This document shows positions 1-64,000 of a stretch of 64,000 nt of DNA, in pieces. The DNA is taken from assembly GCF_056746865.1 (NCBI RefSeq), contig NZ_JBWKMP010000003.1; one strand, given 5' to 3'. The notes under the pieces were generated by a model. The model searched no databases. It saw only the letters and a list, made by a program, of their open reading frames with translations, and had not been told where the DNA came from. This DNA is from a plasmid. Position 1 is the first letter of the stretch; each line of letters opens with the position of its first letter. The translations under genes and the position numbers were made by a program.

Positions 1-9
1 ATCGGCGGA

Positions 10-1524
10 GTGTCATTTGATGGCAGCGCCAATATCGACCTGCCTGGCGTGAATAAAACGGGTAATCAGAGCACTACCGGCAATGCTGCAACCGCAACGA
101 AACTTCAGACGGCAAGAACAATCGGCGGGGTGGCATTTGATGGCACTGCCAATATCAACCTGCCGGGTGTGAACATTGCTGGTAACCAGAACACAACAGG
201 TAATGCTGCAACCGCTACAAAACTGCAAACAGCCCGCACAATCAACGGTGTTAAGTTTGATGGTTCTGCGAACATTTCGATACCAACAATTACGTCCAGA
301 GGGCGTGTTACTGCGCTCACCAGTACAACGCAAGGTGCTACTACTGGATTGCAGATGTATGAGGCGTACAACAACGGCTATCCTTCTGCTTACGGGAATG
401 TGCTTCATCTTAAGGGCGCAGCTGCCGCTGGTGAAGGCGAGTTGTTCATAGGTTGGAGCGGTACAAGTGGTGCTCATGCGCCTGTACATGTACGTTCACG
501 ACGAGATGCTGATACAGCCAGTTGGTCTGAGTGGGCGCAGGTCTACACATCGAAAGATTCCATCCCTGGTGTAAATACCACGGGCAACCAGAACACAACT
601 GGGAACGCGGCGTCTGCAACGAAATTACTAACGGCAAGAACTATTGGTGGTGTTTCATTTAATGGCACCGCAAATATCGACCTGCCGGGCGTGAATAAAA
701 CAGGTAATCAGAGCACTACCGGCAATGCTGCAACTGCAACGAAACTTCAGACGGCACGCACAATCGGCGGGGTTTCGTTTGATGGTACAGCAAACATCAA
801 TCTTCCGGGCGTTAATATTGCCGGAAATCAAAATACAAGTGGTAATGCAGCTACAGCGACAAAGTTAAAAACTGCCAGAAAAATAAGTGGAGTGGCTTTT
901 GATGGTTCTGCAGACATCAGATTAACGGCAAGTCATGTTGGTGCGTTACCAACAACAGGTGGTACTGTTACCGGTGAAATTATATCCAGCAGCCAAAATG
1001 CTATACGCCTAACTTATAATAATAACTATGGATTCCTAATAACTAATACTGGATATAGTTTCCAGATATCAACCACTGGGCAAAATGTTAATGGTGATGT
1101 CGTTTACACTCCATTAAAGATAGATGGCGGTGATGGTCGCGTAGAATTAGGACGTGCTGATGGTCATGTAAGGGTTATGGGGAATTTATCTGCCGCTGGT
1201 CAGATTACCCCTGGTAACTATAGTAATTTCAACACGAAATATCAGGCTAAAAACACAGCATATGCCAACATTCATGGATGGCATAAGGATACATCAACTA
1301 AGGTGATGATGCAGTGGGGGTTTATAACAAATTTAACTCCAGGAAGCGTGGTTAAATTTCCGACTGCTTTTCCTGAGGCGTGTGCGGTAGTTGTGATTTC
1401 GCCTCACAGCGGGAATGCTGTCAATTCAATTCTTTATACATACAACCACTCAGCCACTGGTTTTACAGTGAAAAGTAGCTCCACTGATAAAATATATGCA
1501 CAGTATGTTGCTTATGGGTATTAA
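10..1524 (+). CDS. Tail fibre protein, C-terminal portion (5' end lies outside the window)
   Basis: ORF open from the window edge; tandem Gly/Asn/Thr-rich repeats (GVNxxGNQxTTGNAATATKLxTARTIxGVxFDGxANIxLP) typical of enterobacterial phage side tail fibres; immediately followed by a Tfa gene. Confidence 0.8.
   Translation: MSFDGSANIDLPGVNKTGNQSTTGNAATATKLQTARTIGGVAFDGTANINLPGVNIAGNQNTTGNAATATKLQTARTINGVKFDGSANISIPTITSRGRVTALTSTTQGATTGLQMYEAYNNGYPSAYGNVLHLKGAAAAGEGELFIGWSGTSGAHAPVHVRSRRDADTASWSEWAQVYTSKDSIPGVNTTGNQNTTGNAASATKLLTARTIGGVSFNGTANIDLPGVNKTGNQSTTGNAATATKLQTARTIGGVSFDGTANINLPGVNIAGNQNTSGNAATATKLKTARKISGVAFDGSADIRLTASHVGALPTTGGTVTGEIISSSQNAIRLTYNNNYGFLITNTGYSFQISTTGQNVNGDVVYTPLKIDGGDGRVELGRADGHVRVMGNLSAAGQITPGNYSNFNTKYQAKNTAYANIHGWHKDTSTKVMMQWGFITNLTPGSVVKFPTAFPEACAVVVISPHSGNAVNSILYTYNHSATGFTVKSSSTDKIYAQYVAYGY
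19..890 (+). repeat. Internal direct repeats in the tail fibre gene (about 230 bp at 19-250 and 661-890, each made of ~38-codon sub-repeats)
   Basis: Near-identical DNA and protein blocks read directly at both positions. Confidence 0.8.
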
Positions 1525-1555
1525 AAATATAGTTAATTAGAATGAAGGTGCTTAA

Positions 1556-1978
1556 ATGGCAAAGTATTACAGCAAAGAGACTGGTGGTTTCTACGACGAC
1601 AGACTAAAAGAAGATTACGATAAAAACGGTTCATGGCCGTCCGATACTGTACATATACCTGATGACTTATATGATGAATTGTTATCAGGGTATGGCAATG
1701 GGAAAATAATAATTGCAAATGGCGATGGTTATCCAATGTTATCTGACCCACAACCTATGAGCTTAGAGGATAGAGTCAGCATTGCTGAAAACACCAAAAG
1801 TAGTCTTATGAATGATGTGAGCATAAAAATATCAACGCTTCAGGATGCTGTTGATATGGATATTGCCACTGATGAGGAAATAGAAATGTTGACAAAGTTA
1901 AAGAGGTATAGAGTTCTTCTTAATAGAGTTGACACTTCTGTTGATGCAGATATCTCATGGCCTGAGATGCCTGTATAA
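1556..1978 (+). CDS. tfa: Tail fibre assembly protein (Tfa chaperone)
   Basis: C-terminus LQDAVDMDIATDEEIEMLTKLKRYRVLLNRVDTSVDADISWPEMPV matches the conserved lambda Tfa C-terminal motif as I recall it; RBS-like aaggtg upstream; sits directly after the fibre gene. Confidence 0.85.
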   Translation: MAKYYSKETGGFYDDRLKEDYDKNGSWPSDTVHIPDDLYDELLSGYGNGKIIIANGDGYPMLSDPQPMSLEDRVSIAENTKSSLMNDVSIKISTLQDAVDMDIATDEEIEMLTKLKRYRVLLNRVDTSVDADISWPEMPV

Positions 1979-2020
1979 ACAATCATAACAATCCAATCAG
2001 CACTGCTTTTTTGATATTTC

Positions 2021-2047
2021 AAGCCCTCTTTTGTTGAGGGCTTTATT
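2021..2047 (+). terminator. Rho-independent terminator-like hairpin after tfa
   Basis: aagccctc-ttttgtt-gagggctt followed by tatt. Confidence 0.5.
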
Positions 2048-2438
2048 AGTGAGTGCTTTTGTGACCTTTTTTAGTAATACAATCCTTTGGTACAAAAAAG
2101 CCGCCGTCCAGTCAATGACGGCGGGCAAAATGAACACTCAGTTAGTTGTATCTGAGAGGGGGGCATTATATTCACTGAATGACGCTTGTGAAGACTCACA
2201 TGTCATCATTTTGTCCTCAAGAATCAGCTCACATCTTGCGCATTCAAGCGTATTTCTCTTTAAAGCCGTGTTTGGACCATTTTGTTGATACGCGAATTTG
2301 GCATCCTCCACGCTCTGAGTGACGAGGTTTACGGACCACCGGGCCATCATATGCATCCATTTTGTGTGAATGGCATTTAGTCGGGAAATAACAAACTGGA
2401 TAAGTTGAAGCCGCGTTAAACGTCATTTCTGGAGGGGT

Positions 2439-2765
2439 ATGTTTGCAGATTATGAAAATCTGGCTGTAGCAGTCATAACATCCCTGCTGAGTGGAACCGG
2501 CGTATTCCTTCTCGGAGTTAGAGACGGGCGCATTTCTGCGTCACTGCTCAACCTCGCGAGTGAATTGTTTACTGCAGTAACTGCCGGGCTTGCGGGGTTT
2601 TGGGTGGCTGATAGCTATGAATGGCCGGAAGGCATCATTTACTGCGTTGTTCTGATTGCCAGTAACAACGGAAGTGAAATTTTACAGGGCTTGAAGTCCA
2701 GAGCTAGTAACGTCTTGAATCTCTTAAGCGTAATAGCGAGTGGGGGAAAAGGTGGAGAGAAGTAA
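2439..2765 (+). CDS. Small three-TM membrane protein, putative holin (LydA position)
   Basis: 108 aa with three hydrophobic segments; RBS ggagg; first gene of an operon that continues into a DarA-sized gene. Confidence 0.4.
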   Translation: MFADYENLAVAVITSLLSGTGVFLLGVRDGRISASLLNLASELFTAVTAGLAGFWVADSYEWPEGIIYCVVLIASNNGSEILQGLKSRASNVLNLLSVIASGGKGGEK

Positions 2766-3211
2766 TGGGTGACTTTGGAAATTATTTCATTTTTATCATG
2801 GCATTTGTTGCCGTTATTGACCGTTTCTTATTTCGTCGCAAGAGTGTTGATATTTTGAGCATTGGCGAAGCTGTAGTGAAAGAGTCTGCTATAGCGTTTC
2901 CCGTGTCGCTTCGCGTTAAGCGAAGCTGGGTAAGCAATGCACAAATCGAATATTGGTTGCAGGACTTGAAAAATCCATCTGTGGTTATTTCGGGGAAAAC
3001 AAGACCAGTTGACGCATCAAAACGCGGTGAGAGAGAAGAATATTTGCTCATCGACACGAAATATCTTGAGCCAGCGAAGTGGGATCTAAAGGTCACATTG
3101 ACTAACGGTAATTGCCGCCTGAATCCGCTTTATCGCATTTTCCCTATCAATGACTGCATAGAACGTCAGTTTATGATTGAAAAGTGTGAAGGAGACTGGA
3201 ATGTCAAATAA
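2765..3211 (+). CDS. Hypothetical protein (LydB position, possible antiholin)
   Basis: 148 aa, start coupled to the preceding gene, RBS ggtggagag; function inferred only from position. Confidence 0.3.
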   Translation: MGDFGNYFIFIMAFVAVIDRFLFRRKSVDILSIGEAVVKESAIAFPVSLRVKRSWVSNAQIEYWLQDLKNPSVVISGKTRPVDASKRGEREEYLLIDTKYLEPAKWDLKVTLTNGNCRLNPLYRIFPINDCIERQFMIEKCEGDWNVK

Positions 3212-3818
3212 ATCTAATTATGTTCTTCTTAATTATGATGAGTTAAACGAAAAGGGGCTGGCAAAACTCGTCAAAGAAATCGGTAAAGGAGGCTACAAGA
3301 TAGCGAGGGTGATCCCCGCCAGTAATGGCAGGAAGAAAGACGGGATCATGACGCGCACGTTTACCCTTATCGGAATCGATGAGCAGACGATGGACGTTCA
3401 GGTTAATGATACTGGTGATATTTCTGGTGTAAAACTGAACGGAAAAATTGTTCCTTTCAAGCCAGTTAAAACGCTGATGGCTTTAGGGCAATCACTGGCT
3501 GCTTTATTTAATAAAGGCGCATCATCATTTCAGAAATCATTGGCGCGTAAGTTAGCTCGTGCGGCGAAAGATATTGATGATGGGAATAAGAAAATAAAAG
3601 GCGTTAAGTCCAATGCGCAGAAACTAGCAGAGGCAAAGGAATCTCGCGATGCGATCCGCGAGGATATTGAAAGGGCCAAAGAAAAATTAAATCAGGTGCA
3701 AGGTAATTCAGACCGCGCAACAAGAGAAACTGAAATCATTAGAACCGAGATGGCGCAGGAACTGGCGAAAACTCGCGTATTGAAAGAAGAAATAGCGCGC
3801 CTGGAGGAAGATGCATGA
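3201..3818 (+). CDS. Hypothetical coiled-coil protein (Hdf position in a dar-like operon)
   Basis: ATG at 3201 preceded by aaggagac; charged coiled-coil C-terminus; ORF-track start at 3177 is probably an over-extension. Confidence 0.4.
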   Translation: MSNKSNYVLLNYDELNEKGLAKLVKEIGKGGYKIARVIPASNGRKKDGIMTRTFTLIGIDEQTMDVQVNDTGDISGVKLNGKIVPFKPVKTLMALGQSLAALFNKGASSFQKSLARKLARAAKDIDDGNKKIKGVKSNAQKLAEAKESRDAIREDIERAKEKLNQVQGNSDRATRETEIIRTEMAQELAKTRVLKEEIARLEEDA

Positions 3819-5740
3819 TAAAGAAACCTATTCGAATAAATATCCAGTCCACTTTTGCAGATACGCTCACTGGATATACGCCTAATCGTTGGGTGGCGGA
3901 AGATATCACCGAGGATGATTTACTTATCGAGCCTGCGACGCTGGAAGATATCGAGCTGGCCTATATGGGCAACGAAATTTTGGTAACTACCAATGAGGCA
4001 ATGTTCGAAGCTTTAACCACAACAAAATTGCGGTTAGCGCAAACAATGCGAGCATTTGTCCGGGCGCTTAATCGCGGCCTGAATGGCACTGACATTGCTG
4101 CGGGTACGGATGAGGCAGGTGAATATGAAGACGGACGTAATAGTATCGGTGGGGCAATCATTGGGCGCGTGCGCCGGGTTGCTAATATCCCTGTTGTAAC
4201 AGCACAAATACCTCTAACCGATGGACAAACGACAAGCATAATTTTCCATTCTCCAACCGCAGACGGCACAAGAATTAAAGGGGATGACGAGCTGGTTGCG
4301 TTTCAGTTTCTTCTTAACAAAAGAAACGTTACGCATGTTGTTGCGCCAATCGGTGGGCGTGATGTATCTCTGAGCCAGGTGTGTCAGGCGCTTTCTAACC
4401 TCATTGAGCGTAACAGTGCAAAATTCAAAAAAGCAAAGGAGCGCCAGGACAAAATGAAGGCTGATATTGAGGGGTATCTCAATGAAGCCGACAAGCTGGC
4501 AGAAGAACGTTCTGTGCTGATTGAGCAGGTTGAAGACGCACAGCGGGGGCTGGCAGAGAAACGCTCAACACTCAATGATATGCAGAATAAATTAGACGCA
4601 CAAAAAGCCCTTAACGGGGAATTGCAGGCTAAGCGCGATAATTTATTGTCAGCTAAGAGCCAAGGAACTAAAGAGCGTGCCTTCAATGATCAACTGCGAC
4701 ACATAAAACATAATCTTGCTACAGAAGGCCAAACAACGCTGGATAATGGTGCTGTAGTTAAGTATGTCACGTCAGGCAGTGATAGCTTTGTCACGATTGA
4801 GGCACCAGAAGGCAATTTCAGTATTGATGTCAGTGCTGTTAAAGGTGGGAGTTCAGCGGACGCTGCAACCAAATTACTTAAAGCCTATCGTGAACATAAT
4901 GCTGATCAATACAAAGTGGATGTGTTGCCGGGCCAGCCTGAGCCAACTGATCAGCCGCAGCCTGAACAGGAGCCACAACCAGCATCACATCCTGATCCCC
5001 TGGAGGTTGGTAAATATCGCTATGCGCTACAATCTCGCCCGGCGGGTGTTGGTGCGGTTCCTGAAGGAAATAAAGCTGTACTTGACCGTCCTGATCAGGC
5101 TGATCCGTATTACGAATATGCTCGTCACGGAATCATTACGTATGACCGCAAACTGACAGACGAAGAAGTCAGTCAGTACGAATTACGCTATCTGCCTGAT
5201 GACGATGAACTGAGAGGGATGGCGAACGAGCTGGTTGCGTCCAGCATGGTAAAACATATTGATGGCTATGTAGATCTGTTTGGAAGTGACCTGAAAACAT
5301 TCAAGGCGCAAGTTAAAATTCTTTTCCGCAAAGCGTTCCCGAACGTGGCATATCCACTTGGTGATGGGGAGAACCTTTTCATTATGGACGTGTATAACGC
5401 CCTTCAAAATCATTCAAGCGAAGTAAAAACAGATCCTGTAGTTGAGCCAGAATCGCAACCTGCACCAGCACCAGAACAGGAGCCGGAGCCAGAAGAAGCG
5501 GGTGAATCAGCAAGCGAAGCTGACCAGGAAGCAGATAAAGCGCTTGAGTACCTGAAATCCGTTCCGGAGCAGTTCACATCCCGCGATCTGACGGTCATAA
5601 GTGCTGAACTTGATCATGTGCAGGAAGCTGCAAACGCTCTTATCAGTGCTGGTCGATATGACGAGAACGAAGCAACTGTAGGTGCAGCCGTTGACTACCT
5701 GATCAATATTCTGGCTGAAATTCAGCAGGGAGGTGCTTAA
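3815..5740 (+). CDS. DarA-like candidate (large head-associated protein with coiled-coil and Pro/Glu-rich linkers)
   Basis: 641 aa, close to my recollection of the size of P1 DarA; operon context lyd-like, this gene, small gene; two PEPxxQP-type linkers. Assignment is from size and position, not alignment. Confidence 0.35.
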   Translation: MIKKPIRINIQSTFADTLTGYTPNRWVAEDITEDDLLIEPATLEDIELAYMGNEILVTTNEAMFEALTTTKLRLAQTMRAFVRALNRGLNGTDIAAGTDEAGEYEDGRNSIGGAIIGRVRRVANIPVVTAQIPLTDGQTTSIIFHSPTADGTRIKGDDELVAFQFLLNKRNVTHVVAPIGGRDVSLSQVCQALSNLIERNSAKFKKAKERQDKMKADIEGYLNEADKLAEERSVLIEQVEDAQRGLAEKRSTLNDMQNKLDAQKALNGELQAKRDNLLSAKSQGTKERAFNDQLRHIKHNLATEGQTTLDNGAVVKYVTSGSDSFVTIEAPEGNFSIDVSAVKGGSSADAATKLLKAYREHNADQYKVDVLPGQPEPTDQPQPEQEPQPASHPDPLEVGKYRYALQSRPAGVGAVPEGNKAVLDRPDQADPYYEYARHGIITYDRKLTDEEVSQYELRYLPDDDELRGMANELVASSMVKHIDGYVDLFGSDLKTFKAQVKILFRKAFPNVAYPLGDGENLFIMDVYNALQNHSSEVKTDPVVEPESQPAPAPEQEPEPEEAGESASEADQEADKALEYLKSVPEQFTSRDLTVISAELDHVQEAANALISAGRYDENEATVGAAVDYLINILAEIQQGGA

Positions 5741-6108
5741 TGGCTATCTCTGTTTTAGAACGCCTGAAATTAGGTAAAGAGCTATCAGATCTAATGCAGG
5801 CGCAGAAAACCGCGCCAGTATTGCAACGCGTCTCAATTGGTAAGCAGATTGTTGATGTGATGCTTAAACTGGGGCTTGGGGCTGCGGCCCAATCAGTATC
5901 GGATCCGCAGGCGCAGCCAGATACTGTTGCAGGTGACATTCCTAAGATAGTGACAGACTTCCTTGGAGGTGCATTCACAAAGTCCACGCAAATGGAATTT
6001 ATTGATGCGCTACGTGGGATCTCAAACTATGTAGGCGAGTTCCTTACGTTGGAACAGGCTAAAGAGCAGACCATAAGCTGGGTGAAAGCCAACGGTTATG
6101 CAGGGTAA
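5740..6108 (+). CDS. Small hypothetical protein (DdrA position)
   Basis: 122 aa, ATGA-coupled to the upstream gene, followed by a terminator. Confidence 0.4.
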   Translation: MAISVLERLKLGKELSDLMQAQKTAPVLQRVSIGKQIVDVMLKLGLGAAAQSVSDPQAQPDTVAGDIPKIVTDFLGGAFTKSTQMEFIDALRGISNYVGEFLTLEQAKEQTISWVKANGYAG

Positions 6109-6111
6109 TCA

Positions 6112-6139
6112 AAGGGGCTGAAATGCCCCTTTCACTTTC
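6112..6139 (+). terminator. Rho-independent terminator-like hairpin
   Basis: aaaggggc-tgaaat-gcccctttc. Confidence 0.5.
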
Positions 6140-6201
6140 CTGTAAGTCCATAAATCACACACTTTTTACACTTCCTGCTTTCTATGTAAGGGGAGTGTAT
6201 T

Positions 6202-7587
6202 TTGAACAAGTCAGTTACTTCCGCGCTATCCGAAGCAGCAGACATTAACAGTGTTATTGCGCTGGTTTCTTCATTAGAGAGGCGAGAAACACGCCAGGGG
6301 CGCAGTAGTTACGTAGTCACCAGTAAAGGGGCAGAGGTAAAGACGGCTTTTAAGGTCGTTGATGCCAGCAGTCTGATCATTTCGAACAACCTTGACGGTA
6401 CGATTAATCCGGCCTTCCCGGAAGAACTCCAACCACGAGATCGTACCCGGCTATCCAGCAAACTCCAGGTTAACCGTATTGCCTCCAATTTACGCCCGGC
6501 ACAATTAACGGATTCCGGTATGAGCAGCCACGGAGCGCCGATAGTTGGTCCGGACAACGTTGTTGAATCCGGCAACGGAAGGAGTATGGGTATCTGGCGT
6601 GCCTATGAGCAAGGACAGGCGGATGAGTATCGCCAGTACCTGATCGACCATGCGAAAGAGTTTGGTCTGAATCCTGACGAAATTTCGCAAATGTCTATGC
6701 CCGTACTGGTGCGAGAAAGACTCACAGATGTAGACCGCGCTCAATTTGCCCGCGATTCAAACATTAGCGATCTGCAAGAGATGGCAGCAAGTGAAAAAGC
6801 GTATGCGGATGCGCAATTTCTCACTGAGAGCGTCATGGCGCTATTTAATCCTTCAGATGATGGAAATCTGCTGGCGCGGTCCAATGATGCGTTTATTCGT
6901 GCGTTTTTGCGCGAAATTGGCGATACAGCGACGGCAGGCTTGCTTACTGCCGATGGGCGTCCCACGAAACAGCTTATCGATCGCATCCAGAATGCAATTT
7001 TTGCCAAAGCGTACAAGGATGAAAGGCTTGTTCGGTTGGTGGCGGAAGAGCCAGATCCGGAAATGCGTAACATCCTTACCGCATTAAATACGGCAGCCAG
7101 CGATTTTGCGCAAATGCAGTCGCTTTCAGGTGATGTTCACCATGACACGGTAACCGGACTGGTAGACGGTATAGAGCAATTGAATGGTCTGGATAAACAG
7201 GCTATAGCAGCACTCCAGGACGCGATTAACCTTGTTCGTGAAGCCAAAGACAACGGTCAGGCAGTGGAAGAGGTGATAGCCCAGCGCGGACTCTTCGGTG
7301 ATAGCACGCCGGAAGCTGAGGCGTTGGCGCTATTCATCGTGGCAAATAATCGAAGCGCGAAGCGCATGGGGGCTGCATTCAAAAAAATGGCACAAAAAAT
7401 CAACGACGAACTGATTCATAAACAGCAGGCGTTGGGCGATATGTTCGGCGGTGGAGATGTCGATCTACGTAGTATTTTGACCGCTGTTTCTAATGAGATT
7501 GAACTGGAACATGGAGAGGGGAAAGGGCTTAACTTCACGATGTTCGAAGCCAAAACAGAACAAAGCGATTTTGGGCTGGAAACCTGA
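6202..7587 (+). CDS. Hypothetical 461-aa protein, probable TTG start
   Basis: Long ORF with RBS aagggga 8 nt upstream of TTG; no recognisable motif by eye; occupies the slot after the dar-like genes. Confidence 0.5.
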   Translation: MNKSVTSALSEAADINSVIALVSSLERRETRQGRSSYVVTSKGAEVKTAFKVVDASSLIISNNLDGTINPAFPEELQPRDRTRLSSKLQVNRIASNLRPAQLTDSGMSSHGAPIVGPDNVVESGNGRSMGIWRAYEQGQADEYRQYLIDHAKEFGLNPDEISQMSMPVLVRERLTDVDRAQFARDSNISDLQEMAASEKAYADAQFLTESVMALFNPSDDGNLLARSNDAFIRAFLREIGDTATAGLLTADGRPTKQLIDRIQNAIFAKAYKDERLVRLVAEEPDPEMRNILTALNTAASDFAQMQSLSGDVHHDTVTGLVDGIEQLNGLDKQAIAALQDAINLVREAKDNGQAVEEVIAQRGLFGDSTPEAEALALFIVANNRSAKRMGAAFKKMAQKINDELIHKQQALGDMFGGGDVDLRSILTAVSNEIELEHGEGKGLNFTMFEAKTEQSDFGLET

Positions 7588-7698: not shown

Positions 7699-8130
7699 TC
7701 ACCGCATTGGTGTGACAGATACGGCGATATTTTTATTCAGTTGATGCAGTGCCAGCTCGACAGTTTCAACTTTCGATGAATGTTCGACGTCGAGAAGCCG
7801 ATCAATCTGTGTTCCATTTTTTCCGAGTTTGCGCGCCAACTCTGCTTTGCGTGTGCCGGTTTCTATCATCGCGTTGTGGAGTGCAGCCTTCATTGCTGGT
7901 AGCACTGGCAAAGAGACAACGTACTCACCTTCTTTTGGCTCGCTACCAGTGGGAACAGGTCGGCGTTCTTCAATCTCAATCGCAACCGCTGCGACCAATC
8001 CATAACCAGCCTCAAGCAACGCTTCTTCAACTGAGTCACCCACGGAATTAAACAATGGTAGGTCGCGGCATGATACGACATACGCGCCGGTTTTGTCGTC
8101 GCGCTCCAGTTTTACCGGATAGTTAAACAT
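7699..8130 (-). CDS. hicB: HicB antitoxin
   Basis: N-terminal YPVKLERDDKTGAYVVSCRDLP with a C-terminal HTH-like region, matching the HicB family; directly downstream of hicA on the same strand. Confidence 0.85.
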   Translation of the reverse strand: MFNYPVKLERDDKTGAYVVSCRDLPLFNSVGDSVEEALLEAGYGLVAAVAIEIEERRPVPTGSEPKEGEYVVSLPVLPAMKAALHNAMIETGTRKAELARKLGKNGTQIDRLLDVEHSSKVETVELALHQLNKNIAVSVTPMR

Positions 8131-8160
8131 AGAGAAGCTCCTAGTGAAAAAGGCTGGGGC

Positions 8161-54602: not shown

Positions 54603-54624
54603 GACGCCGAACGCGTCTTTTTTT
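54603..54624 (+). terminator. Rho-independent terminator
   Basis: gacgc-cgaac-gcgtc followed by ttttttt. Confidence 0.6.
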
Positions 54625-54639
54625 GTGTCATGCCATCGC

Positions 54640-55966: not shown

Positions 55967-55978
55967 TAGATTTGCCCC

Positions 55979-56000
55979 GGTCATGCCGGGGCTTTAACTA
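55979..56000 (+). terminator. Terminator-like hairpin after ant-like
   Basis: gccccgg-tcatg-ccggggc followed by ttt. Confidence 0.5.
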
Positions 56001-56004
56001 CTAA

Positions 56005-56343
56005 GTGACCGGACACAGCAAAATGTATGCCACGAAAAAAATTGATTTCACTTATTCTTCCGCCACAATTGAGCGGCGCTTCACCCTCATTAGAGAGTTG
56101 GAACTGTCAAAAGTCTGGTATCAAATTCTACTGGATGAAGAGTTCTCACTGATGATAATGGCTGAAAAAGAAGCAATGCCGAATGACCGGCATAAAGTCA
56201 TTGCCAGCCTTGACCTGGTGACAAACAGATACTGGGAGACAGAGGAACTGCGTGAAGCGGGAGTAATTCGTGACCTGATGGAGAGTTCCGTTCCCCGCCG
56301 CTATCGTGCGGGAAACGAAATCTCCGTGATTAAAGGGGCTTAA
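56005..56343 (+). CDS. Hypothetical protein
   Basis: 112-aa ORF; start uncertain. Confidence 0.4.
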   Translation: MTGHSKMYATKKIDFTYSSATIERRFTLIRELELSKVWYQILLDEEFSLMIMAEKEAMPNDRHKVIASLDLVTNRYWETEELREAGVIRDLMESSVPRRYRAGNEISVIKGA

Positions 56344-56732
56344 AGCTCACCAGCACGCTGTTTTTCAAGCGTAGATTTAACATTGGGCGCTTTCCCTTTA
56401 AAAGAATGGAAAGTGCCACATTTTTCTGTTTTAACCTCGCGCAGAGCTTCGCCATCGGCGTTCTGCCATTGATGAGATAACGTCATATCACCGCGAGAAG
56501 GAACATCCAGCGAGTACAACGTGTAAGTTCCCCCCATCTCGGCATACTCCTGGAACACATAGCTCATTACGTCAGATTCAGTTTTCCGGTGCGCGTTATC
56601 GACCTTATTCCCATTCAGAAATATGGCGTTCGGATAGATTTTTATATCAAACCTACCGCACTTCACTTGTAAATTCCCGGCGTGAGCGATCAAAGGGAAA
56701 GCTGCCAATAAAGCAATAGCTAATCTTTTCAA
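56340..56732 (-). CDS. Secreted hypothetical protein
   Basis: N-terminal signal peptide MKRLAIALLAAFPLIAHA. Confidence 0.55.
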   Translation of the reverse strand: MKRLAIALLAAFPLIAHAGNLQVKCGRFDIKIYPNAIFLNGNKVDNAHRKTESDVMSYVFQEYAEMGGTYTLYSLDVPSRGDMTLSHQWQNADGEALREVKTEKCGTFHSFKGKAPNVKSTLEKQRAGEL

Positions 56733-56752
56733 TTCTGCCTCCGCTGCGTAAC

Positions 56753-57373
56753 TTATTGCCCGTATTGTTTACACCATTGCTCTGCCATTTGTGGGGCTAA
56801 AGGCCCAGCCACTGCGCTGTATTCTGCTGTTTTGCTTTGCACGCATGAGGCAGATGGTTTTTTATTGCGCTGTTCCTTGAGTTGTTTTTCATAGGCAACG
56901 ATGGCATCGAAACCAGCTACATCTTCCTCCCTCATGAACCCTTTCTTGATCAGAAACTGCTGACCTTCCGGCACCAATGCTAGAGCATACAACGGCTGCA
57001 ACAGCTCCCCCAATCCTTCCCGGCTATAAACTTGAAACTGCATCCAGCTTTTACTTAACGCTGTCATAGTGTCTTTGGTGGAATAGCCAGCCTTGCGTAT
57101 AGCCTTGTCTAATCGATCTGCTGAATACGCAAACAAACAGAAATCGCCCTTTCCTGTAAACCCCGGTTCAACCGGTTGCAACGTGATATTTTCTTTTTCG
57201 CAAAAGTCTATAAATTCATCAGGTCTATCGGTTTTATAGTCCCGCAATACCTTCAGTCCAGCCTCATACTTTGCAGGTAACGCGCCTGCATAGGCAGCAT
57301 TAAGAGAAACTCCCCCCAATATAACCGCGAGCACTGCTCCCAAAACCCTTAACTTCACAAAACCATCCTTCAT
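56753..57373 (-). CDS. Secreted or periplasmic hypothetical protein
   Basis: Signal-peptide-like LRVLGAVLAVILGGVSLNAAYA; start may be the GTG at 57358 with RBS aagga. Confidence 0.5.
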   Translation of the reverse strand: MKDGFVKLRVLGAVLAVILGGVSLNAAYAGALPAKYEAGLKVLRDYKTDRPDEFIDFCEKENITLQPVEPGFTGKGDFCLFAYSADRLDKAIRKAGYSTKDTMTALSKSWMQFQVYSREGLGELLQPLYALALVPEGQQFLIKKGFMREEDVAGFDAIVAYEKQLKEQRNKKPSASCVQSKTAEYSAVAGPLAPQMAEQWCKQYGQ

Positions 57374-57587
57374 GTAAACAAACTGAAGTTTTATGTTACA
57401 AAAGCAAACATCTACGCCAAAATGACTTAGGCCAAATTCAGCGCGAATAAAAAAATCAAAAAAATTGTTGACACTATTCTGGAAATCACAATCTGGACAA
57501 AATCCATTGCGCAAACGGCTCCCGTTGAAGGTTCTTTTGACGACTAACTTTCAGCCGATGCGCGGTAGGGAGTCATAACGCCAAAGC

Positions 57588-57612
57588 AGGCCGCCATGTG
57601 CGGCCTTTTTTT
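57588..57612 (+). terminator. Textbook rho-independent terminator with no upstream plus-strand gene
   Basis: aggccgc-catgt-gcggcct followed by 7 T. Confidence 0.6.
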
Positions 57613-57638
57613 GTGCCTGCTATCGTGGAGTAAAAGCC

Positions 57639-58292
57639 ATGCAAAAGATCGCAATATTCAGTCTTTCTACTAACAAGCCGCTGATGGCTACGGCAGTCCT
57701 GAAAGACGGCGCGCTTGTAATTGACAAAGTAAAGCCGCTCCCTGCATCTGCTATTGAACAAAAACGAAAAATTCCACCAGCAATTGCCGAGCTGCGTAAA
57801 AGTGAATTTAAGGTGCTGGTTGACGAAATCACGCCAACCATTTCAGCCGGTACAGGTGCCAGCCAGGTAACATTAAAAACACGGCACGCCGACGGCAGAG
57901 CAGCGATCATTGTCGGCATGGAGAGATACCGGGAGCTGAAACTACAAAGGCTGCTATCCCTGCCTGACAAGAACAAAGGGGCATTTGAGATCCCCGACTC
58001 TATCGTCGATACCGAATACAACGGCAACGGTGAAGAGGTTTATCGAGTTAACTGGCAAGATATCCGACCAGAGCACATCCTGATGATTCTGTGCTGCTAT
58101 GCAACGGTATACCACAATGTTGCCAGCGCGGATTACCTGAAACAAATGACAGGAGCGGTAGAGAAAGAAAACAAAGCAGGGATAATGGCCTCGTTCCTGT
58201 CCATTATCAGCGATCAAAAAGCTAAAGCAGGAAATACCCAACCAAAATCGCTGGCCGGGCAAGTAATTGATGAAGATACGGTGATACTTTAA
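57639..58292 (+). CDS. Hypothetical protein (217 aa)
   Basis: ORF with RBS ggag. Confidence 0.5.
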   Translation: MQKIAIFSLSTNKPLMATAVLKDGALVIDKVKPLPASAIEQKRKIPPAIAELRKSEFKVLVDEITPTISAGTGASQVTLKTRHADGRAAIIVGMERYRELKLQRLLSLPDKNKGAFEIPDSIVDTEYNGNGEEVYRVNWQDIRPEHILMILCCYATVYHNVASADYLKQMTGAVEKENKAGIMASFLSIISDQKAKAGNTQPKSLAGQVIDEDTVIL

Positions 58293-58623
58293 TCAACTCA
58301 GTAGCTTTGTTAACTCCCTTAATACCAGGTAGAAGAGTAACAAAAATACTAACGCCAGTATTTGCGTGGTCAACGAGGCGTTCATAAACAGAACAATTAG
58401 CTTTAACAATTCGAGAATAACGTCCATGTCATTCACACTATTTAATTTTTAATCTACAGCCAGCAAACAATGAAGCTGGCCCCCGCATAAAGATTAATGA
58501 AAGTCACTTGTCACCAGTGAGGGGATTTATGAACCACATCCCCCTGAACTGGTGGACTGTCTGTTTCTCGCATTTCACACCCTGCATACAGTTCCCCCCA
58601 GGTTATGACTGTGAGGAACTGTT

Positions 58624-58953
58624 ATGAGTTACAGCAGGCTCGACGATCGATGCATTGAAGACGATGTGCTGCGCGCACTATTCCATCAGGAGATGATCAA
58701 GCGGGTATCGGAGTACCACTCCGATAATTTCCAGTACACGATAAAAATTGATGAGGTTTATCGCTCAGACCTGGCGGCCTATCGCGCCTATGGCAACGCT
58801 GATTTGCGCTGGGTATTTCGCGTGCTGGTGGGCCATGAGTCAGAAATGGAAGAAATGCCGGTCGGGACAACGTTAACTCTTCCTGACGCAGCATGGCTAA
58901 GAAACAAGATTCGCGATTACGCTGGCTCGGCACCGGAGATAGAAAATGCCTGA
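58624..58953 (+). CDS. Hypothetical protein (109 aa)
   Basis: ORF overlapping the next gene start. Confidence 0.5.
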   Translation: MSYSRLDDRCIEDDVLRALFHQEMIKRVSEYHSDNFQYTIKIDEVYRSDLAAYRAYGNADLRWVFRVLVGHESEMEEMPVGTTLTLPDAAWLRNKIRDYAGSAPEIENA

Positions 58954-60142
58954 CTTCCTGAAAAATCAGGACGGGCGATATATCACTGACGGCCTGTCCT
59001 CTAAGGATTTCACACGCGTATTTGAACTCATCAGGAAAGAGCAAAACCGCAAACGCCGCCAGGCGAACAGGACACTCACGCCGGGCAGGCTTAGGAATAA
59101 ATCAGCCGAAGACATTCTTAAGCTGGGGAAAAAGAAAGGCGGCACGTTCTTTACGCGTGACGATCTGAAAGGCTTCGAAAAGCTGCGAAGCAAAGCACGC
59201 GAAAAATATGACAGCAAGACGGCTGGCATTACATACGCACAACTGGTAGCGTCCAGCCAGGCTATCGATATTAAGCGAGCAAATAACGCCGTAGACGACG
59301 GTTCTGGTATCAAAAGAGCTACGCCCGTATCTCTTCGTCACAATGTGATTAATATCCGCGTGGAAGCGTCCGATATATCCGTTCACCAGCACCACATTGT
59401 CCGGGTACGTTTTGAAGAATGGGATCAGATGGTCGATGACATCGCAGAAGACGATAAATCAGCCCTGAAAGTCACAAAATCACTGTGTGCCGGGCGAGTG
59501 TCTTTCGACTGTGACTGCGGTCGCCATCAATACTGGTATCGCTACATCGCCACTGCGGGTAACTTTGCCCTGGCCCCGCCAAAAGAATACGCCTATCCAA
59601 AAGTTCGCAACCCTAAGCTGCAAGGCGTCGCCTGTAAACATGTGATCCACTCAATGACACGACTACAGTCTGCCAGTTGGCAGATGAGTATTGCTCGTGC
59701 GCTACAAAAGGCTGCAACGCAAATTGCATTTGGTGACGATCGCCGCCGTACAACCAAACACTTCTCAAAAGAAGACGAGAAGGAGTTTAATCGCAATCGT
59801 AGCAGTAAAACGAACGTTGAAGCCGCCAAACGCGAATGGAGGCTCTATCAGAAGCGCCAGGCAGCTTTAAGTACAAAACTGGCGAAGGACAACGGCAAGA
59901 TCGACAAGCTACGTGACCAACTGACCAGGGCCAGAAAGTTGTCAGACGCACAGAAAAAACGAGCGGCAGCAAAAGAAGCGGCCTTGCAACGTGAGAAACA
60001 GAAAAACAAGGAGCTTCAGCAACGCCTTGCCGATCAGTTCGCACTGAAGAAGCAGGCGTTCATTGATGCGCTGGTCATGGCAGGAACGTCACCTGGGCAA
60101 GCTGAAAAAATGTTTATGGAGTACGTGAAGAAAGGTTCTTGA
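58946..60142 (+). CDS. Hypothetical 398-aa protein with a Cys cluster and a basic coiled-coil C-terminus
   Basis: CAGRVSFDCDCGRH motif; KR-rich coiled coil. Confidence 0.5.
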   Translation: MPDFLKNQDGRYITDGLSSKDFTRVFELIRKEQNRKRRQANRTLTPGRLRNKSAEDILKLGKKKGGTFFTRDDLKGFEKLRSKAREKYDSKTAGITYAQLVASSQAIDIKRANNAVDDGSGIKRATPVSLRHNVINIRVEASDISVHQHHIVRVRFEEWDQMVDDIAEDDKSALKVTKSLCAGRVSFDCDCGRHQYWYRYIATAGNFALAPPKEYAYPKVRNPKLQGVACKHVIHSMTRLQSASWQMSIARALQKAATQIAFGDDRRRTTKHFSKEDEKEFNRNRSSKTNVEAAKREWRLYQKRQAALSTKLAKDNGKIDKLRDQLTRARKLSDAQKKRAAAKEAALQREKQKNKELQQRLADQFALKKQAFIDALVMAGTSPGQAEKMFMEYVKKGS

Positions 60143-60176
60143 TTGACAACAAAGGCGGTCATACAGACCGCCGAAC

Positions 60177-60557
60177 TCATACACCAACCAGGCTTTCAAG
60201 AGGAATGCCAAACTGGGAATGTAAACGACGAATCATAGGTAACGTTAAATTTCGTGTTCCATTTAGCACTTCGTAAACACGATTTGACTTACCAATCGCC
60301 GGTTCCAGATCCTTCACGGTCAGCCCTTGCTGTTCCATACGGAATTTAATGGCCTCAATAGGTGATGGTGGCTCAATTGGGTAATGTTTTTTCTCGTACT
60401 CCTCAATGAGAAGACACATGACCTCAAAGAAATCACCTTCCGGGGTGTTCATTTCCGGTTCGTTATCGAACATCGGTTCGACCGCACGCAGTGCGGCCTC
60501 ATAATCTTGTTCTGTACGGATAGGTTTAATGTTCATTAATTCCAAAGGAAAGCCCAC
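60177..60557 (-). CDS. Long-form HigA-family HTH antitoxin-like protein, no adjacent cognate toxin
   Basis: C-terminal HTH GKSNRVYEVLNGTRNLTLPMIRRLHSQFGIP and N-terminal PIRTEQDYEAAL region typical of the longer HigA-type antitoxins. Confidence 0.5.
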   Translation of the reverse strand: MGFPLELMNIKPIRTEQDYEAALRAVEPMFDNEPEMNTPEGDFFEVMCLLIEEYEKKHYPIEPPSPIEAIKFRMEQQGLTVKDLEPAIGKSNRVYEVLNGTRNLTLPMIRRLHSQFGIPLESLVGV

Positions 60558-60592
60558 TTGTTAAGTGGGCTTTTTGTATGTGTTTAACTATA

Positions 60593-60931
60593 TCAGGCTG
60601 CTTTTTTATTCAGGTTCCGCTGAGAAATAAATTTTTCAGCAGTATTGATACGACTTAACTCTTCCTGAACGCGCATATCATTTTCGACTTCCCACAGGTC
60701 TACTGCGGTCTGAAGATTAATCCAAAAATCTACAGAAGTATCGAATGCTTTTGCCAGGCGATATGCCATATCCATCGTTAGCTTACGATTGTTATTAACA
60801 AGAGCACTTACGGTGTTACGATGAACATGAAGTATTTCTGCTAACTCGTTGATCTTAAGCTCTAACGGCTCCAGGTATTCGTACAGCAGGATATCACCTA
60901 CAGTCGTCGGTTTTCTGGTTGCCTGTTTCAT
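60593..60931 (-). CDS. higA: HigA antitoxin (Xre-type HTH)
   Basis: TVGDILLYEYLEPLELKINELAEILHVHRNTVSALVNNNRKLTMDMAYRLAKAFDTSVDFWINLQ matches the HigA antidote family; directly downstream of higB. Confidence 0.8.
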   Translation of the reverse strand: MKQATRKPTTVGDILLYEYLEPLELKINELAEILHVHRNTVSALVNNNRKLTMDMAYRLAKAFDTSVDFWINLQTAVDLWEVENDMRVQEELSRINTAEKFISQRNLNKKAA

Positions 60932-61002
60932 TTTTTGCCCTTACTAGCGTGCGTATTAAGTGGACTCTGGTCAGTACCTGGCCCATCCGCCGGGTATTTG
61001 TT

Positions 61003-61305
61003 TTAGTATTTGTGAGGGTCGAGATACAAGTCCTCGGCCTTTCCGTTAACCCACTTAAAAATTAACCTGTATTGCTTATTCACCCTTATTGATGAATAGC
61101 CGTTTAGCTTCCCTGACAATTCCTCATACCGATTACCTGGTGGTGATCTCAAGTCCTTCCAAGTAGTTGCAGCATTGATAATATCCAGCTTCCGCAACAA
61201 TGTAATCTGAATATCAGAAGGTATCTTTTTGTGTGGTATTGAAAATTCAAAAAAATCATCAAGCCACTCATCCCTGAAATTCTTTATGTTAATCTTTTTG
61301 CTCAT
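61003..61305 (-). CDS. higB: HigB toxin (RelE/ParE superfamily)
   Basis: LLRKLDIINAATTWKDLRSPPGNRYEELSGKLNGYSSIRVNKQYRLIFKW matches the HigB killer-protein signature. Confidence 0.8.
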   Translation of the reverse strand: MSKKINIKNFRDEWLDDFFEFSIPHKKIPSDIQITLLRKLDIINAATTWKDLRSPPGNRYEELSGKLNGYSSIRVNKQYRLIFKWVNGKAEDLYLDPHKY

Positions 61306-61468: not shown

Positions 61469-62263
61469 ATGGGCCGTTTTGATGAATGGCTTGCTGATGA
61501 TGCAAGCCTGATGAGAAAGGGAACAGAACATGACAGCACGCAGAGAGAAGAGACAACGACGGTTGAAGCGAATGAAGGAAGCACAACGGAAAATGGGAAG
61601 GTCAGTACAGGGCCATTCAGTATTCTGGAAGAACACGCTGCCACCGAAGCAGATAGCCGCCATGATAATTGGCCTGATAATGCTGGTGACTCTGTTACGG
61701 AAGTGATTGAACCTGACATCGCCCCCCTACCGGCATCGCTCGCTAACAGAGAACCAAACCAGCAGCTTAAAACCCGATATAACGGACACAAAGCGTTCAA
61801 CGACCAGATCCGCGCCGATTGGATGCTCATTATTGAATCAAGCCCTGACGCATTCGAGGCGCTTTTATATCGCCCGGCTGATGGCACCTATGGCGTCGTA
61901 AACGATGAAACAGGTGAAGAGTCATTCACGCAACTGGACAACAACCAGCGTGAGCTTACCTATCTGGAACCGGAAATCGTATACGTCCTGGACAACCCGG
62001 ACGGAAGGGATTCGTTTCATGCCATTGATGCCGATGGAGAACAGGATGGTCTTGCTGATGAAGTGCTAATCCTGCGTATTGCTGCAAACAACGTACCTGT
62101 TGGTTCAATCCTGGAATGGAACGAAGAAATGGCGAATGGCCTCGCCCGCCGCTGGTGGTACGTGCACCGAATCTTCAGCTACGGAACACAACACGTCGGC
62201 TCCCTTTATTACTGCATCCCGGCCAGGAACTTTGATACCACTCAAAACGGAGTGATCGAATGA
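61469..62263 (+). CDS. Hypothetical protein, first gene of a coupled plus-strand operon (possible virion morphogenesis)
   Basis: ATG at 61469 with RBS gagga; acidic N-terminal region. Confidence 0.5.
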   Translation: MGRFDEWLADDASLMRKGTEHDSTQREETTTVEANEGSTTENGKVSTGPFSILEEHAATEADSRHDNWPDNAGDSVTEVIEPDIAPLPASLANREPNQQLKTRYNGHKAFNDQIRADWMLIIESSPDAFEALLYRPADGTYGVVNDETGEESFTQLDNNQRELTYLEPEIVYVLDNPDGRDSFHAIDADGEQDGLADEVLILRIAANNVPVGSILEWNEEMANGLARRWWYVHRIFSYGTQHVGSLYYCIPARNFDTTQNGVIE

Positions 62264-63027
62264 CATCCAACAAAACTCTCCTGTCCCGCATTGGCGAGTG
62301 GCAGACAACGCGTACTGGAAAATTCCAGACAACTGGTCTGGAAAGAGTGGATAACGCTTTTGCTACGCTAATCAGTGACATTTTTTCTGACGTAACGCTG
62401 GTGGAACCAGCAAAAGAAGAAAGGCGCTTTGCATCATTCCTGAGTCGCCCACCAGCGGAGCGTGTTTATGTTGCCCGTTTTGATAACGCGGTCGAGTTCC
62501 TTAAAGCGGTTCGCCGTGCTAATGCCGGGCAAGGGAGAAAGCCAGAGAATCCGAACATTAATCGCGATGCGCTCCCTCTGATTAATATCTCGCGCTCAAT
62601 GGATATCAGCTATATCAACAATGACCAGCAGATAGACCGCAAAAGCTGTGATCACTTCTGCGAACCTGGCAGCGGTATGCCTTTAGTAGCCCTGGAATAC
62701 ACCCAGGCAAATCTGACGTATGACGTTACATTAATGGCGACGGATAAGGCGACCATGAGTCTGATGTGTAATTCGCTAGGAGCACGTCTTCGCTTGATGG
62801 CAGGAACGCAGTTTGAAGCAACAACCCCGCTGGTACGAGTACCCGTCCCGCTAATTTGCGCGATTCAGGATGCTAAAGACATCAGTTTTACTGATGTTTC
62901 AGCCCCAATTGGGGAAGAGCGTATTTATGCTGCACAAACGGCAATTAGTGTTATAGCAGACGTGATCACCGCCTGGGAGCTGGACGCGAAACGAATTATT
63001 ACTGAAACCTCTCTGAGAATGGGGTAA
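62260..63027 (+). CDS. Hypothetical protein, coupled (ATGA) to the upstream gene
   Basis: 255-aa ORF. Confidence 0.5.
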   Translation: MTSNKTLLSRIGEWQTTRTGKFQTTGLERVDNAFATLISDIFSDVTLVEPAKEERRFASFLSRPPAERVYVARFDNAVEFLKAVRRANAGQGRKPENPNINRDALPLINISRSMDISYINNDQQIDRKSCDHFCEPGSGMPLVALEYTQANLTYDVTLMATDKATMSLMCNSLGARLRLMAGTQFEATTPLVRVPVPLICAIQDAKDISFTDVSAPIGEERIYAAQTAISVIADVITAWELDAKRIITETSLRMG

Positions 63028-63030
63028 GCC

Positions 63031-64000
63031 ATGTCCCAGGAGCTACAGCAATACTTTCTACAGTCCGTTACCATCAACGGAAACAAAGTACCCAGGGAGT
63101 GGATATTCACTGCCGTATATGTGGAAAAGGCAAACCTGCGTGCACCATTGCTGAAACTGGAAATTCACGACATTACCGGCACCATAATTGATGACTGGAA
63201 AACAAAATACGGCGCAGCACTGGTTGCAGAGATGGGAGATCCACAAGGCAATTCAGGCACGTTTAAAACAACTTTTTTCGTAACATCTGCGGTGCTGGCT
63301 GGTGATGTCATCACGGTCATTGCAGTCAGTGAAGACGTTCGGATATTTAAGATCCCCGCCATACGGGCTAACCTGCATACAAATAAAACGCCTGATACCA
63401 TTTTCAAGACGTATACCGGTACACTGAAAATCGCCTCCAGCGCATTGAAACGAAGCTGTACGTACCATCTTTCCGCCGGGGAAAAACCCTCCAAAATGCT
63501 ATCTGAAATGGCCCGCGATAAAGGCGCTTTATGCTGGGCCTGCCGTGGTCAGTTTAACTTTTATACATTAGCTGACCTTATGAAAGCCAAACCATCATTC
63601 ACCTATGAAGGGAACAACCCCAGGGCGGAATACACGATTTCAAAAATGAGGCTTATACAGCAAGAGTATGCCGTTACGGCAAATACTCAGTATCGATTTA
63701 CCGGCTATTCAATGACTGAAGGCTATGTCGAATATGGCGATAGCTCACTTCCAATACGCTATATATCCGATCCGGATATGGAAACTCTGCGCAATATGCA
63801 ATTGTCGCTCGTACCCAAAATGGATATTGAGGTCGCGGGTAATCCCGACATCACGCCGGGAATGGTTATTGAGATCCTCGTGTATCGTTACGACCAGGAA
63901 AATAAGCTGGACGAATCGTTGCCTCGTAAGCTGTTGGTGAAAAACGTAGCCCATTTTGAGGACCGGATCGGCTATACAACACGAATGATATTAGGAGTAC
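63031..64000 (+). CDS. Hypothetical protein, 3' end outside the window (absent from ORF track because no stop is in the window)
   Basis: ATG at 63031 opens a frame that I translated by hand to the window end without a stop. Confidence 0.55.
   Translation, partial: MSQELQQYFLQSVTINGNKVPREWIFTAVYVEKANLRAPLLKLEIHDITGTIIDDWKTKYGAALVAEMGDPQGNSGTFKTTFFVTSAVLAGDVITVIAVSEDVRIFKIPAIRANLHTNKTPDTIFKTYTGTLKIASSALKRSCTYHLSAGEKPSKMLSEMARDKGALCWACRGQFNFYTLADLMKAKPSFTYEGNNPRAEYTISKMRLIQQEYAVTANTQYRFTGYSMTEGYVEYGDSSLPIRYISDPDMETLRNMQLSLVPKMDIEVAGNPDITPGMVIEILVYRYDQENKLDESLPRKLLVKNVAHFEDRIGYTTRMILGV

Follow-up and report, generated by a model that had tools for sequence, protein, structure and literature searches.

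The genome of Escherichia phage D6 was reportedly described by Gilcrease and Casjens in 2018, a work cited by the paper on D6-like plasmid prophages. P1-like phage-plasmids have already been divided into two groups, P1-g1, to which P1 belongs, and P1-g2, which comprises the D6-like elements; the two differ in the placement of replication and partition genes, and their pacA genes are divergent (PMC7969092). D6-like plasmid prophages, such as pYU39_89, have been described, with two immI loci and no lxc (PMC6799933). P1-g2 elements are temperate myoviruses; as prophages they exist as circular plasmids of ~90 kb and low copy number. A 64,000-nucleotide stretch of plasmid contig NZ_JBWKMP010000003.1 (RefSeq assembly GCF_056746865.1), referred to here as the window, is compared below with D6 and P1. 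The window is almost certainly a 64-kb arc, about two-thirds, of a D6-type (P1-g2) phage-plasmid.

Gene order and plasmid state

The reference sequences are those of D6 (MF356679/NC_050154; 91,159 bp, circular) and P1 (NC_005856; Punavirus, P1-g1, IncY/p0111). When the window was searched in thirds against a phage collection with megablast, the top match for each third was D6, on the minus strand; P1 gave short matches only. By blastn the window and D6 form a single monotonic chain, in which window positions 196-32918 correspond to D6 36307 down to 133 and positions 33037-63998 to D6 91159 down to 64825. Nucleotide coverage of the window by D6 is 77%, with identities of 74-96%; by P1 it is 13.7%, and the P1 matches are in scattered order. 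At the amino acid level, 77 open reading frames (ORFs) of the window have D6 homologues, with a mean identity of 81.5%. Six formal breakpoints are found relative to D6, all from two paralogous matches (a PacB paralogue and an Ea22 paralogue), and thus there is no true rearrangement. The 39 ORFs with P1 homologues fall into 20 collinear blocks separated by 19 breakpoints. The 89 annotated genes of the D6 arc were also projected onto the window, a gene being counted as present at a coverage of at least 70%; 65 were found, all in D6 order and orientation.

A preliminary description of the window, made from the sequence, listed P1-type modules in a non-P1 order, with extra cargo and a lambdoid-type accessory block, and proposed a mosaic. 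All of the listed modules are indeed present (tail fibre, dar, prt/pro, immI, darB, tRNAs, lpa/pacAB, a gene in the c1 position, ref and hot-humD-phd-doc), and their order does differ from that of P1, as the block and breakpoint counts and the low nucleotide coverage show. Synteny comparison did not reveal canonical P1 with another strand and origin; once strand and choice of origin are set aside, the window is canonical D6. The order described as non-P1 is the published D6 order, since both the P1-g1/P1-g2 split and the differing gene placement are in the literature (PMC7969092). The idea of a mosaic holds for an accessory block shared with lambdoid phages, but not as an idiosyncratic reshuffling of P1. 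The gene order and the lambdoid-type cargo are the normal layout of the D6 lineage and represent no new rearrangement; the architecture was already known, D6-type elements being a well-described sister lineage of P1.

The likeness to D6 extends over gene order and orientation along the whole window, the position of the accessory block, an exact rox site, Dre, the type of C1 repressor, two C4/icd/ant loci, four tRNAs, the higBA and phd-doc pairs, dUTPase, both Tad2-like fusions and an isaA-like gene. The differences are that core nucleotide identity is only ~80-91%, that D6 is without the pseudo-terminase and hicAB genes of the window, and that the window is without tciAB, orf73 and simB/orf80. 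In addition, 13.4 kb of the window, in 12 segments mostly within the accessory block, has no D6 nucleotide match. These differences amount to exchanges of cargo at separate places, such as another member of the group would be expected to show; the places are the cin-less tail fibre, hicAB, tciAB, simB, orf73 and the hot-ref accessory block. With P1 the window shares the Dar operon, prt/pro, RepL, C4/icd/ant, DarB, Lpa/PacAB, a C1 repressor with scattered operators, a Cre-type recombinase, Ref, Hot/HumD and Phd/Doc, as well as the same lifestyle logic. However, most core genes are only ~20-65% identical to P1 in amino acid sequence, they lie in 20 rearranged blocks, P1 has lox instead of rox, and its operators and late promoters have other sequences. 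The genes lxc, res/mod, ban and kilA were not found in the 64-kb window.

Closest to the window, with 97-99.6% identity along the backbone, are complete plasmids from E. coli and E. marmotae, which are circular, non-mobilizable and 89-94 kb in size. Five of them (NZ_CP104667.1, NZ_LR890273.1, NZ_JBYRJZ010000003.1, NZ_CP069647.1 and NZ_CP085065.1) share with the window the backbone, hicAB, the cin-less fibre and the pseudo-terminase. Elements of this type are common. In PLSDB, 95 plasmids cover at least 80% of window positions 1-25000, and at least 80% of the prt-darB region is covered in 87 of 5,426 complete E. coli genomes. The window therefore represents one more member of a common and described class of E. 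coli and Salmonella plasmids, with its own shuffle of accessory genes; as a discovery it amounts to little, and what looks rearranged in comparison with P1 is the usual arrangement in this lineage. Its value lies partly in annotation, as D6-like elements routinely enter the databases as anonymous plasmids with large numbers of hypothetical proteins.

The arc that holds the replication and partition genes in D6 (36.3-64.8 kb) is not covered by the window, which explains why these genes are lacking from it. In D6 this arc has genes for a RepB-family initiator, ParM/StbA and ParA-like proteins, set apart by structural genes. NZ_CP104667, in its arc outside the window, likewise has among its head and tail genes those for a RepB-family initiator, a ParA-like ATPase, and ParM with its partner. 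The ends of the window do not overlap, and no overlap is expected because they map 28.5 kb apart on D6.

Several observations weigh against assignment to a D6-type phage-plasmid, or limit it. Replication and partition genes and the remaining structural genes lie outside the window, and therefore the plasmid state and completeness of the element rest on its relatives. No searched record is at least 99% identical to the whole window; the best covers 66-74% of the variable half, and the record with the best backbone match (99.6%) differs in the accessory block. The S'/U' copy and the rest of cin, both present in D6 and P1, were not found in the window. Finally, the operator, late-promoter and pac signals proposed below are drawn from sequence.

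The preliminary description left the choice between a phage-plasmid and the interior of a large prophage, and of these the former stands. Since its close relatives are all circular plasmids of ~90 kb, the element is not an integrated prophage but a phage-plasmid. That the window shows the interior of a prophage, either one integrated in a chromosome or a P1-lambdoid hybrid, is very improbable, even though ~4.2 kb is 95-99% identical to a Stx2c prophage and matches to the accessory block are frequent on chromosomes; the lack of host genes in 64 kb fits either case. The prt-darB region is covered to at least 80% in 88 records, and among the matches listed the full-length ones are ~93-kb plasmids and the chromosomal ones short antirepressor fragments. 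Dre is the sole integrase, there is no lambdoid structural or regulatory module, and the same accessory block is found inside circular IncY and D6-type plasmids. An assembly chimera of P1-like, D6-like and lambdoid reads might account for the abrupt changes in identity along that block, but is scarcely credible. NZ_CP104667 spans most of the junctions in long blocks (5519-26116, 26351-38865 and 52126-60162), and the segment at 40.3-47.6 kb is found joined (5-8 aligned pieces, query 18-6919) in many independent complete plasmids, a recurrence that argues against a chimera. The pattern is also that of the known recombination mosaic of phage-plasmids, to judge from parts of one published account (PMC10879196).

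Canonical P1 (Punavirus, P1-g1) on the other strand and with another origin can be given almost no probability. Many gene names are common to both, the immI c4/icd segment is ~84-88% and phd-doc-humD-hot ~94% identical to P1; against this stand the 13.7% coverage, the 20 blocks with 19 breakpoints, rox rather than lox, a C1 protein that scores 24 bits with the NCBIfam P1-C1 model (cut-off 500), and the P1 operator, present 17 times in P1 and not once in the window. An element that has decayed into a non-inducible D6-derived plasmid, no longer a functional phage, is also unlikely. The loss of cin and of the alternative tail-fibre genes and the absence of simB, tciAB and orf73 would fit decay, and truncated D6-like variants do exist, as in the p75 variant (PMC6799933). 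Yet the structural, lysis, packaging and regulatory genes of the D6 arc are all full length, at 74-98% amino acid identity; the S and U ORFs are intact within a cin-less module that is common to several plasmids, and the losses concern accessory genes.

Immunity, recombination and candidate regulatory signals

The gene in the c1 position (31790-32824, minus strand) encodes a D6-type prophage repressor with 80% amino acid identity to D6 C1, and it has no tblastn match in P1. Between c1 and dre lies rox (33021-33052), the Dre target and counterpart of P1 lox. It is identical at 32 of 32 positions to the D6 rox, which was joined from two annotated halves in the D6 record, and differs from P1 lox. 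The dre gene (33205-34230, plus strand) encodes a tyrosine recombinase homologous to Cre, 94% identical to D6 Dre and 42% to P1 Cre. The lox/cre pair named in the preliminary description is thus present as a pair of site and recombinase (33021-34230), but it is the rox/Dre pair of D6. By analogy with P1 biology and the relatives, Dre/rox would cyclise infecting DNA and resolve dimers, while a RepB-family initiator would replicate the plasmid and ParM/ParA-like systems would segregate it, with genes in the ~28 kb outside the window.

At the DNA sequence level, a 14-bp motif, TGTTAGAAAATTAA, was found at 16 sites in a scan that allowed up to two mismatches; 0.74 sites are expected, and none of 100 shuffles reached 16. 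The sites are at 11287, 12493, 22396, 23451, 24696/24712, 24846, 28381/28397, 32839, 34235, 48271/48287, 53347/53363 and 53994. All are at or beside gene boundaries, and there are four inverted pairs with a spacing of 16 bp. The motif is present upstream of repL, the first C4 locus, pmgM, pmgS, lpa, c1 (just upstream) and ref. Further sites follow pmgS and dre, lie between pdcB and ppp, and overlap the end of ref. At several sites these places parallel those of the P1 operators OrepL, Oc4, OpmgR, Olpa, Oref and Omat. D6, with 16 sites, and NZ_CP104667, with 19, have the motif at homologous positions; P1 has none. The consensus of the P1 C1 operator, ATTGCTCTAATAAATTT, shows the reverse distribution, with 0 matches in the window, 0 in D6 and 17 in P1; therefore the P1 operator is not used here. 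Accordingly, TGTTAGAAAATTAA is proposed as a candidate operator of the D6-type C1, which would repress scattered operons by way of its own operator at 16 sites where P1 has C1 operators. A literature search for the motif returned unrelated papers only, the D6 genome paper being outside that search.

A second sequence, the box AAATMACAMAST, is present at 9 sites in the window compared with 2.9 expected, and six of these are 40-150 bp upstream of late-gene starts. Sites are at 2386, 6152, 8523, 14541 (minus strand), 57483 and 61407, and the box precedes lydA, ddrB, prt, gene 7 and the lysozyme gene by 40-60 bp. In D6 it is also upstream of genes R, pmgB, 23 and upfC. It may represent a Lpa-dependent late promoter of the D6 lineage, and Lpa would then switch on the late operons via a D6-type box, AAATCACAMAST. 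A position weight matrix made from 10 annotated P1 late promoters, with the -22 box AAGTGACTT, gave 6 matches in the window versus 10.5 in shuffled sequences, and thus no enrichment; only one of these, at 58491 (minus strand), is strong, and apart from it the P1-type box is not conserved.

A cluster of GATC sites with GGGATCAT/ATGATCCC repeats is situated at ~29190-29330 inside pacA (offsets 316-447), and the same offsets are found in D6 pacA. The cluster resembles the Dam-sensitive hexamer cluster in P1 pacA. Perhaps it functions as a Dam-sensitive pac site, which is plausible from its sequence and from the P1 analogy; PacAB would cut at this GATC-rich site within pacA, leading to headful packaging. 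The D6 GenBank record carries no annotation of the TGTTAGAAAATTAA operator, the late-promoter box or pac. Unless the D6 genome paper already reports them, the operator and the late-promoter box, together with the pseudo-terminase cassette discussed below, are leads for those working on D6.

The two immI-like loci were delineated with Rfam and by projection from D6, and both are on the plus strand. The first, which with orf17 spans 12598-13976, consists of the c4-a1b1 targets (12598-12650), the C4 antisense RNA (12719-12804), icd (12851-13072) and a gene for a Roi/Rha-type antirepressor (13075-13779); its Rfam scores are 55 bits for RF03163 and 70 bits for RF01695. The second spans 54545-55963 and has an isrK-like RNA, a C4 antisense RNA (54668-54755), icd2 (54810-55022) and an antirepressor gene (55025-55963), with scores of 61 bits for RF01394 and 77 bits for RF01695. 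P1 Lxc has no tblastn match in the window. The lytic replication initiator gene repL (11473-12432, plus strand) encodes a protein 97% identical to the D6 repL product and 29% identical to P1 RepL.

A cluster of four tRNA genes (26040-26972, plus strand), found with ARAGORN and Rfam, encodes tRNAs for Asn (GTT), Thr (TGT) and Ser (TGA) and a tRNA with the anticodon CAT. The same set of Asn, Thr, Ser and CAT-anticodon tRNAs has been reported for the D6-like pYU39_89 (PMC6799933). The CAT-anticodon tRNA (26897-26972) is identical at 74 of 76 positions to P1 trnI, which is annotated as tRNA-Ile2 and is ileX-like; ARAGORN calls it Met, and the literature on D6-like elements also gives methionine. 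The tRNA is also present in D6 (6084-6159, 95% identical), where it is unannotated in the record.

The ref gene (53425-53994, plus strand) encodes a protein with 54% amino acid identity to P1 Ref. On its 5' side, from 52228, are orf90, a DUF4406 gene and orf88 (minus strand); over 52228-53994, ref included, amino acid identity to D6 is 71-92%.

The accessory block and cargo genes

The region between hot and ref (39668-52235, minus strand) contains small genes without assigned function, Ea22-like genes and a DUF4752 gene. Named genes within it are a pmgT-like gene (46500-47228), pdcB (47236-48228) and the phosphatase gene ppp (48339-49019), and an Ea22-type block extends over ~43.9-52.2 kb, with Ea22/EaD/EaE annotations beneath the matches. 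All accessory-block proteins tested belong to PHROG families without known function. When compared by 500-bp segments, some parts of the block are 85-92% identical to D6 and others 89-99% identical to P1. Over 41.7-46.0 kb (~4.2 kb) the identity to a lambdoid Stx2c prophage (LC645408) is 95-99%, and the segment at 50.0-52.2 kb is 94-98% identical to the Ea22/EaD/EaE regions of several phages. About 7 kb of 39.6-52.1 kb is absent even from the closest plasmid, NZ_CP104667.

The segment at 40.3-47.6 kb is present at ~98% identity and 66-72% coverage in many plasmids of ~91-101 kb. Its best match, at 98.4%, is the E. fergusonii IncY plasmid NZ_CP057563.1. The gene order around the block in this plasmid is pacAB-lpa-pdcB-doc-phd-humD-hot ... 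pap-pmgS-ppp-pmgM. This is the P1 gene order, and therefore the IncY plasmid is a P1-type phage-plasmid. The lambdoid-type block thus occupies a corresponding position in D6 and in IncY plasmids of the P1 type, and for this region the annotations in the D6 record mention similarity to genes of lambdoid phages. By these identities the block appears as a patchwork exchanged by recombination among P1-type plasmids, D6-type plasmids and lambdoid prophages. That it was traded between lineages follows from ~95-99% identity in the shared block while the cores are only ~20-65% identical in amino acid sequence, and the ~98% identity with the IncY plasmid points to a recent exchange between P1-g1 and P1-g2. 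Recombination in phage-plasmids has been published, and what parts of that account describe agrees with a patchwork block (PMC10879196). The window thereby illustrates how the hot-ref block passes, at 95-99% identity, between lambdoid prophages and plasmids of the D6 and P1 types.

The likeness to the early-left 'ea' regions of lambdoid and P22-like phages is limited to small accessory genes. No lambdoid integrase, repressor, replication, lysis or structural gene was found in the window, where lambdoid matches are confined to ~41.7-46.0 and 50.0-52.2 kb; outside these matches the window is accounted for by D6 homologues.

The preliminary description regarded three toxin-antitoxin pairs, a dUTPase, Tad2-like fusions, a pseudo-terminase and the Ea22 block as inserted cargo. 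All are present, but most are native to D6: phd-doc, higBA, the dUTPase, both Tad2-like genes and also the isaA-like gene. Moreover, Phd-Doc is not extra cargo even relative to P1, because P1 has it too. The only cargo additions relative to D6 are hicAB and the pseudo-terminase, and both are found in NZ_CP104667. The genes hicB (7699-8130) and hicA (8161-8343), on the minus strand at 7699-8343, are in place of D6 orf23/orf24; HicA matches PF07927 (E=1.4e-9), and HicB matches the HicB-like family phrog_497 (E=6e-35). The genes doc-phd-humD-hot (38236-39665, minus strand) encode proteins 92-100% identical to those of D6 and ~93-95% identical to those of P1, and Doc (TIGR01550) and Phd (TIGR01552), encoded at 38236-38828, both score over the cut-off. 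A gene for a helix-turn-helix regulator is followed by higA and higB (60180-61305, minus strand), with 89-100% amino acid identity to D6 orf70-72; at 60596-61305, HigA matches TIGR02607 with 102 bits and HigB PF05015 with E=1.4e-34. The toxin-antitoxin pairs would kill cells that lose the plasmid.

Projection from D6 places orf117, orf116, the dUTPase gene, a Tad2-like fusion and the isaA-like gene at 34306-37104 (plus strand). The dUTPase (35132-35626) matches TIGR00576 over the cut-off, with 117 bits. The Tad2-like fusion at 35641-36291 has a PF11195 domain at residues 141-215 (E=6e-18). The second fusion, a homologue of D6 orf6 (27425-28000, plus strand; 92% amino acid identity), joins an N-terminal domain without assignment to a Tad2-like domain (PF11195 at residues 103-190, E=2.6e-9). 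PF11195 (Thoeris anti-defence 2, Tad2-like) is C-terminal in both proteins and the N-terminal domains differ; both proteins are kept in D6. The copy of the 27425-28000 protein in NZ_CP104667 bears the RefSeq name "MW1434 family type I TA system toxin". PADLOC gave no defence-system match for ten cargo proteins, including the simB-replacing ORFs, the pseudo-terminase and the isaA-like protein, and NCBIfam gave no match for most cargo proteins.

The pseudo-terminase and the structural, lysis and packaging genes

The pseudo-terminase gene (37085-38191, plus strand) encodes a 368-residue paralogue of the N-terminal ATPase half of PacB, 33% identical to the window's own PacB over residues 8-264. 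The Walker A motif reads GIGQK rather than GTGKS and the Walker B motif VTEAA rather than LDEAS, and the nuclease half is missing. From these motifs the protein is predicted to be an ATPase-dead PacB paralogue. It matches phrog_5902 over its full length (E=1.7e-133), a family without assigned function, and has no match in Pfam. The gene is in NZ_CP104667 and not in D6. Homologues with 49% identity are present as a second copy in two P1-like phages. In one P1-like phage, MH422554, the 49% homologue has the same degenerate motifs and comes after ssb and an isaA-like gene.

The pseudo-terminase gene always comes after an isaA-like gene (here 36298-37104); it is conserved as a second terminase copy in some phage-plasmids of the P1 and D6 types, and the map position of the two genes differs between these lineages. 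Conceivably, though with a low probability, they form a mobile cassette of two genes whose role is to interfere with DNA packaging or to regulate it, and not a dead remnant; the protein could, for example, be a decoy for PacA or for the portal of a competing P1-like phage. P1 isaB was considered as an IS1-truncated remnant of a pseudo-terminase and was rejected, as there is no blastp similarity.

The window opens within the tail fibre gene S, whose C-terminal part (10-1524, plus strand; ORF open at the window start) is ~50% identical in amino acid sequence to S of both D6 and P1. It is followed by a gene for a U-like tail-fibre assembly protein (1556-1978, plus strand), with 31% identity to D6 U. 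Of the cin invertase, a stub remains (2210-2281, minus strand), which by tblastn with D6 and P1 Cin contains Cin residues 11-34 only. With cin reduced to 24 residues and no S'/U' copy, the tail fibre cannot switch; the invertible segment is typical of D6 and P1, though not clearly a defining trait of the D6 group. NZ_CP104667 is likewise cin-less, and the sub-lineage that includes it differs from D6 and P1 in that its tail fibre is divergent and fixed.

The operon lydA-lydB-hdf-darA-ddrA-ddrB (2439-7548, plus strand), for holin/antiholin and Dar anti-restriction head proteins, has 80-97% amino acid identity to D6 orf30-25 and 34-65% to P1. The genes prt (portal) and pro (head processing) are at 8576-11267 (plus strand), with identities of 94% and 92% to D6 and 49% and 41% to P1. 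A lysozyme-like gene (14014-14496, minus strand) encodes a protein 97% identical to that of D6 orf16. The darB gene, for an anti-restriction protein of 2278 amino acids with methyltransferase and helicase functions, and ulx are at 14649-21953 (plus strand), 98% identical to D6 and 43-46% to P1 in amino acid sequence. They are followed by orf13, pmgM (VRR-NUC), orf11, pmgR and pmgS (21959-24690, plus strand), identified by D6 projection at 51-94% identity. The genes for the late promoter activator Lpa and the terminase proteins PacA and PacB (28488-31746, plus strand) show 82, 74 and 92% amino acid identity to D6, respectively, and 34, 21 and 56% to P1.

Beyond the second immI-like locus, pmgF (56035-56295) and mat (57639-58289), both on the plus strand, were located by D6 projection. 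Between them, two ORFs (56340-57514, minus strand) are found in place of D6 simB/orf80; they match phrog_13864 and phrog_12786, both families without assigned function. By their superimmunity position these ORFs may be alternative exclusion or defence cargo. The baseplate and tail genes 26 and 25 (58624-60136, plus strand) have 92% and 97% amino acid identity to D6 and 43% and 55% to P1. Tail genes 7, 24 and 6 (61469-63999, plus strand), the last of which reaches the end of the window, are 78-85% identical to those of D6.

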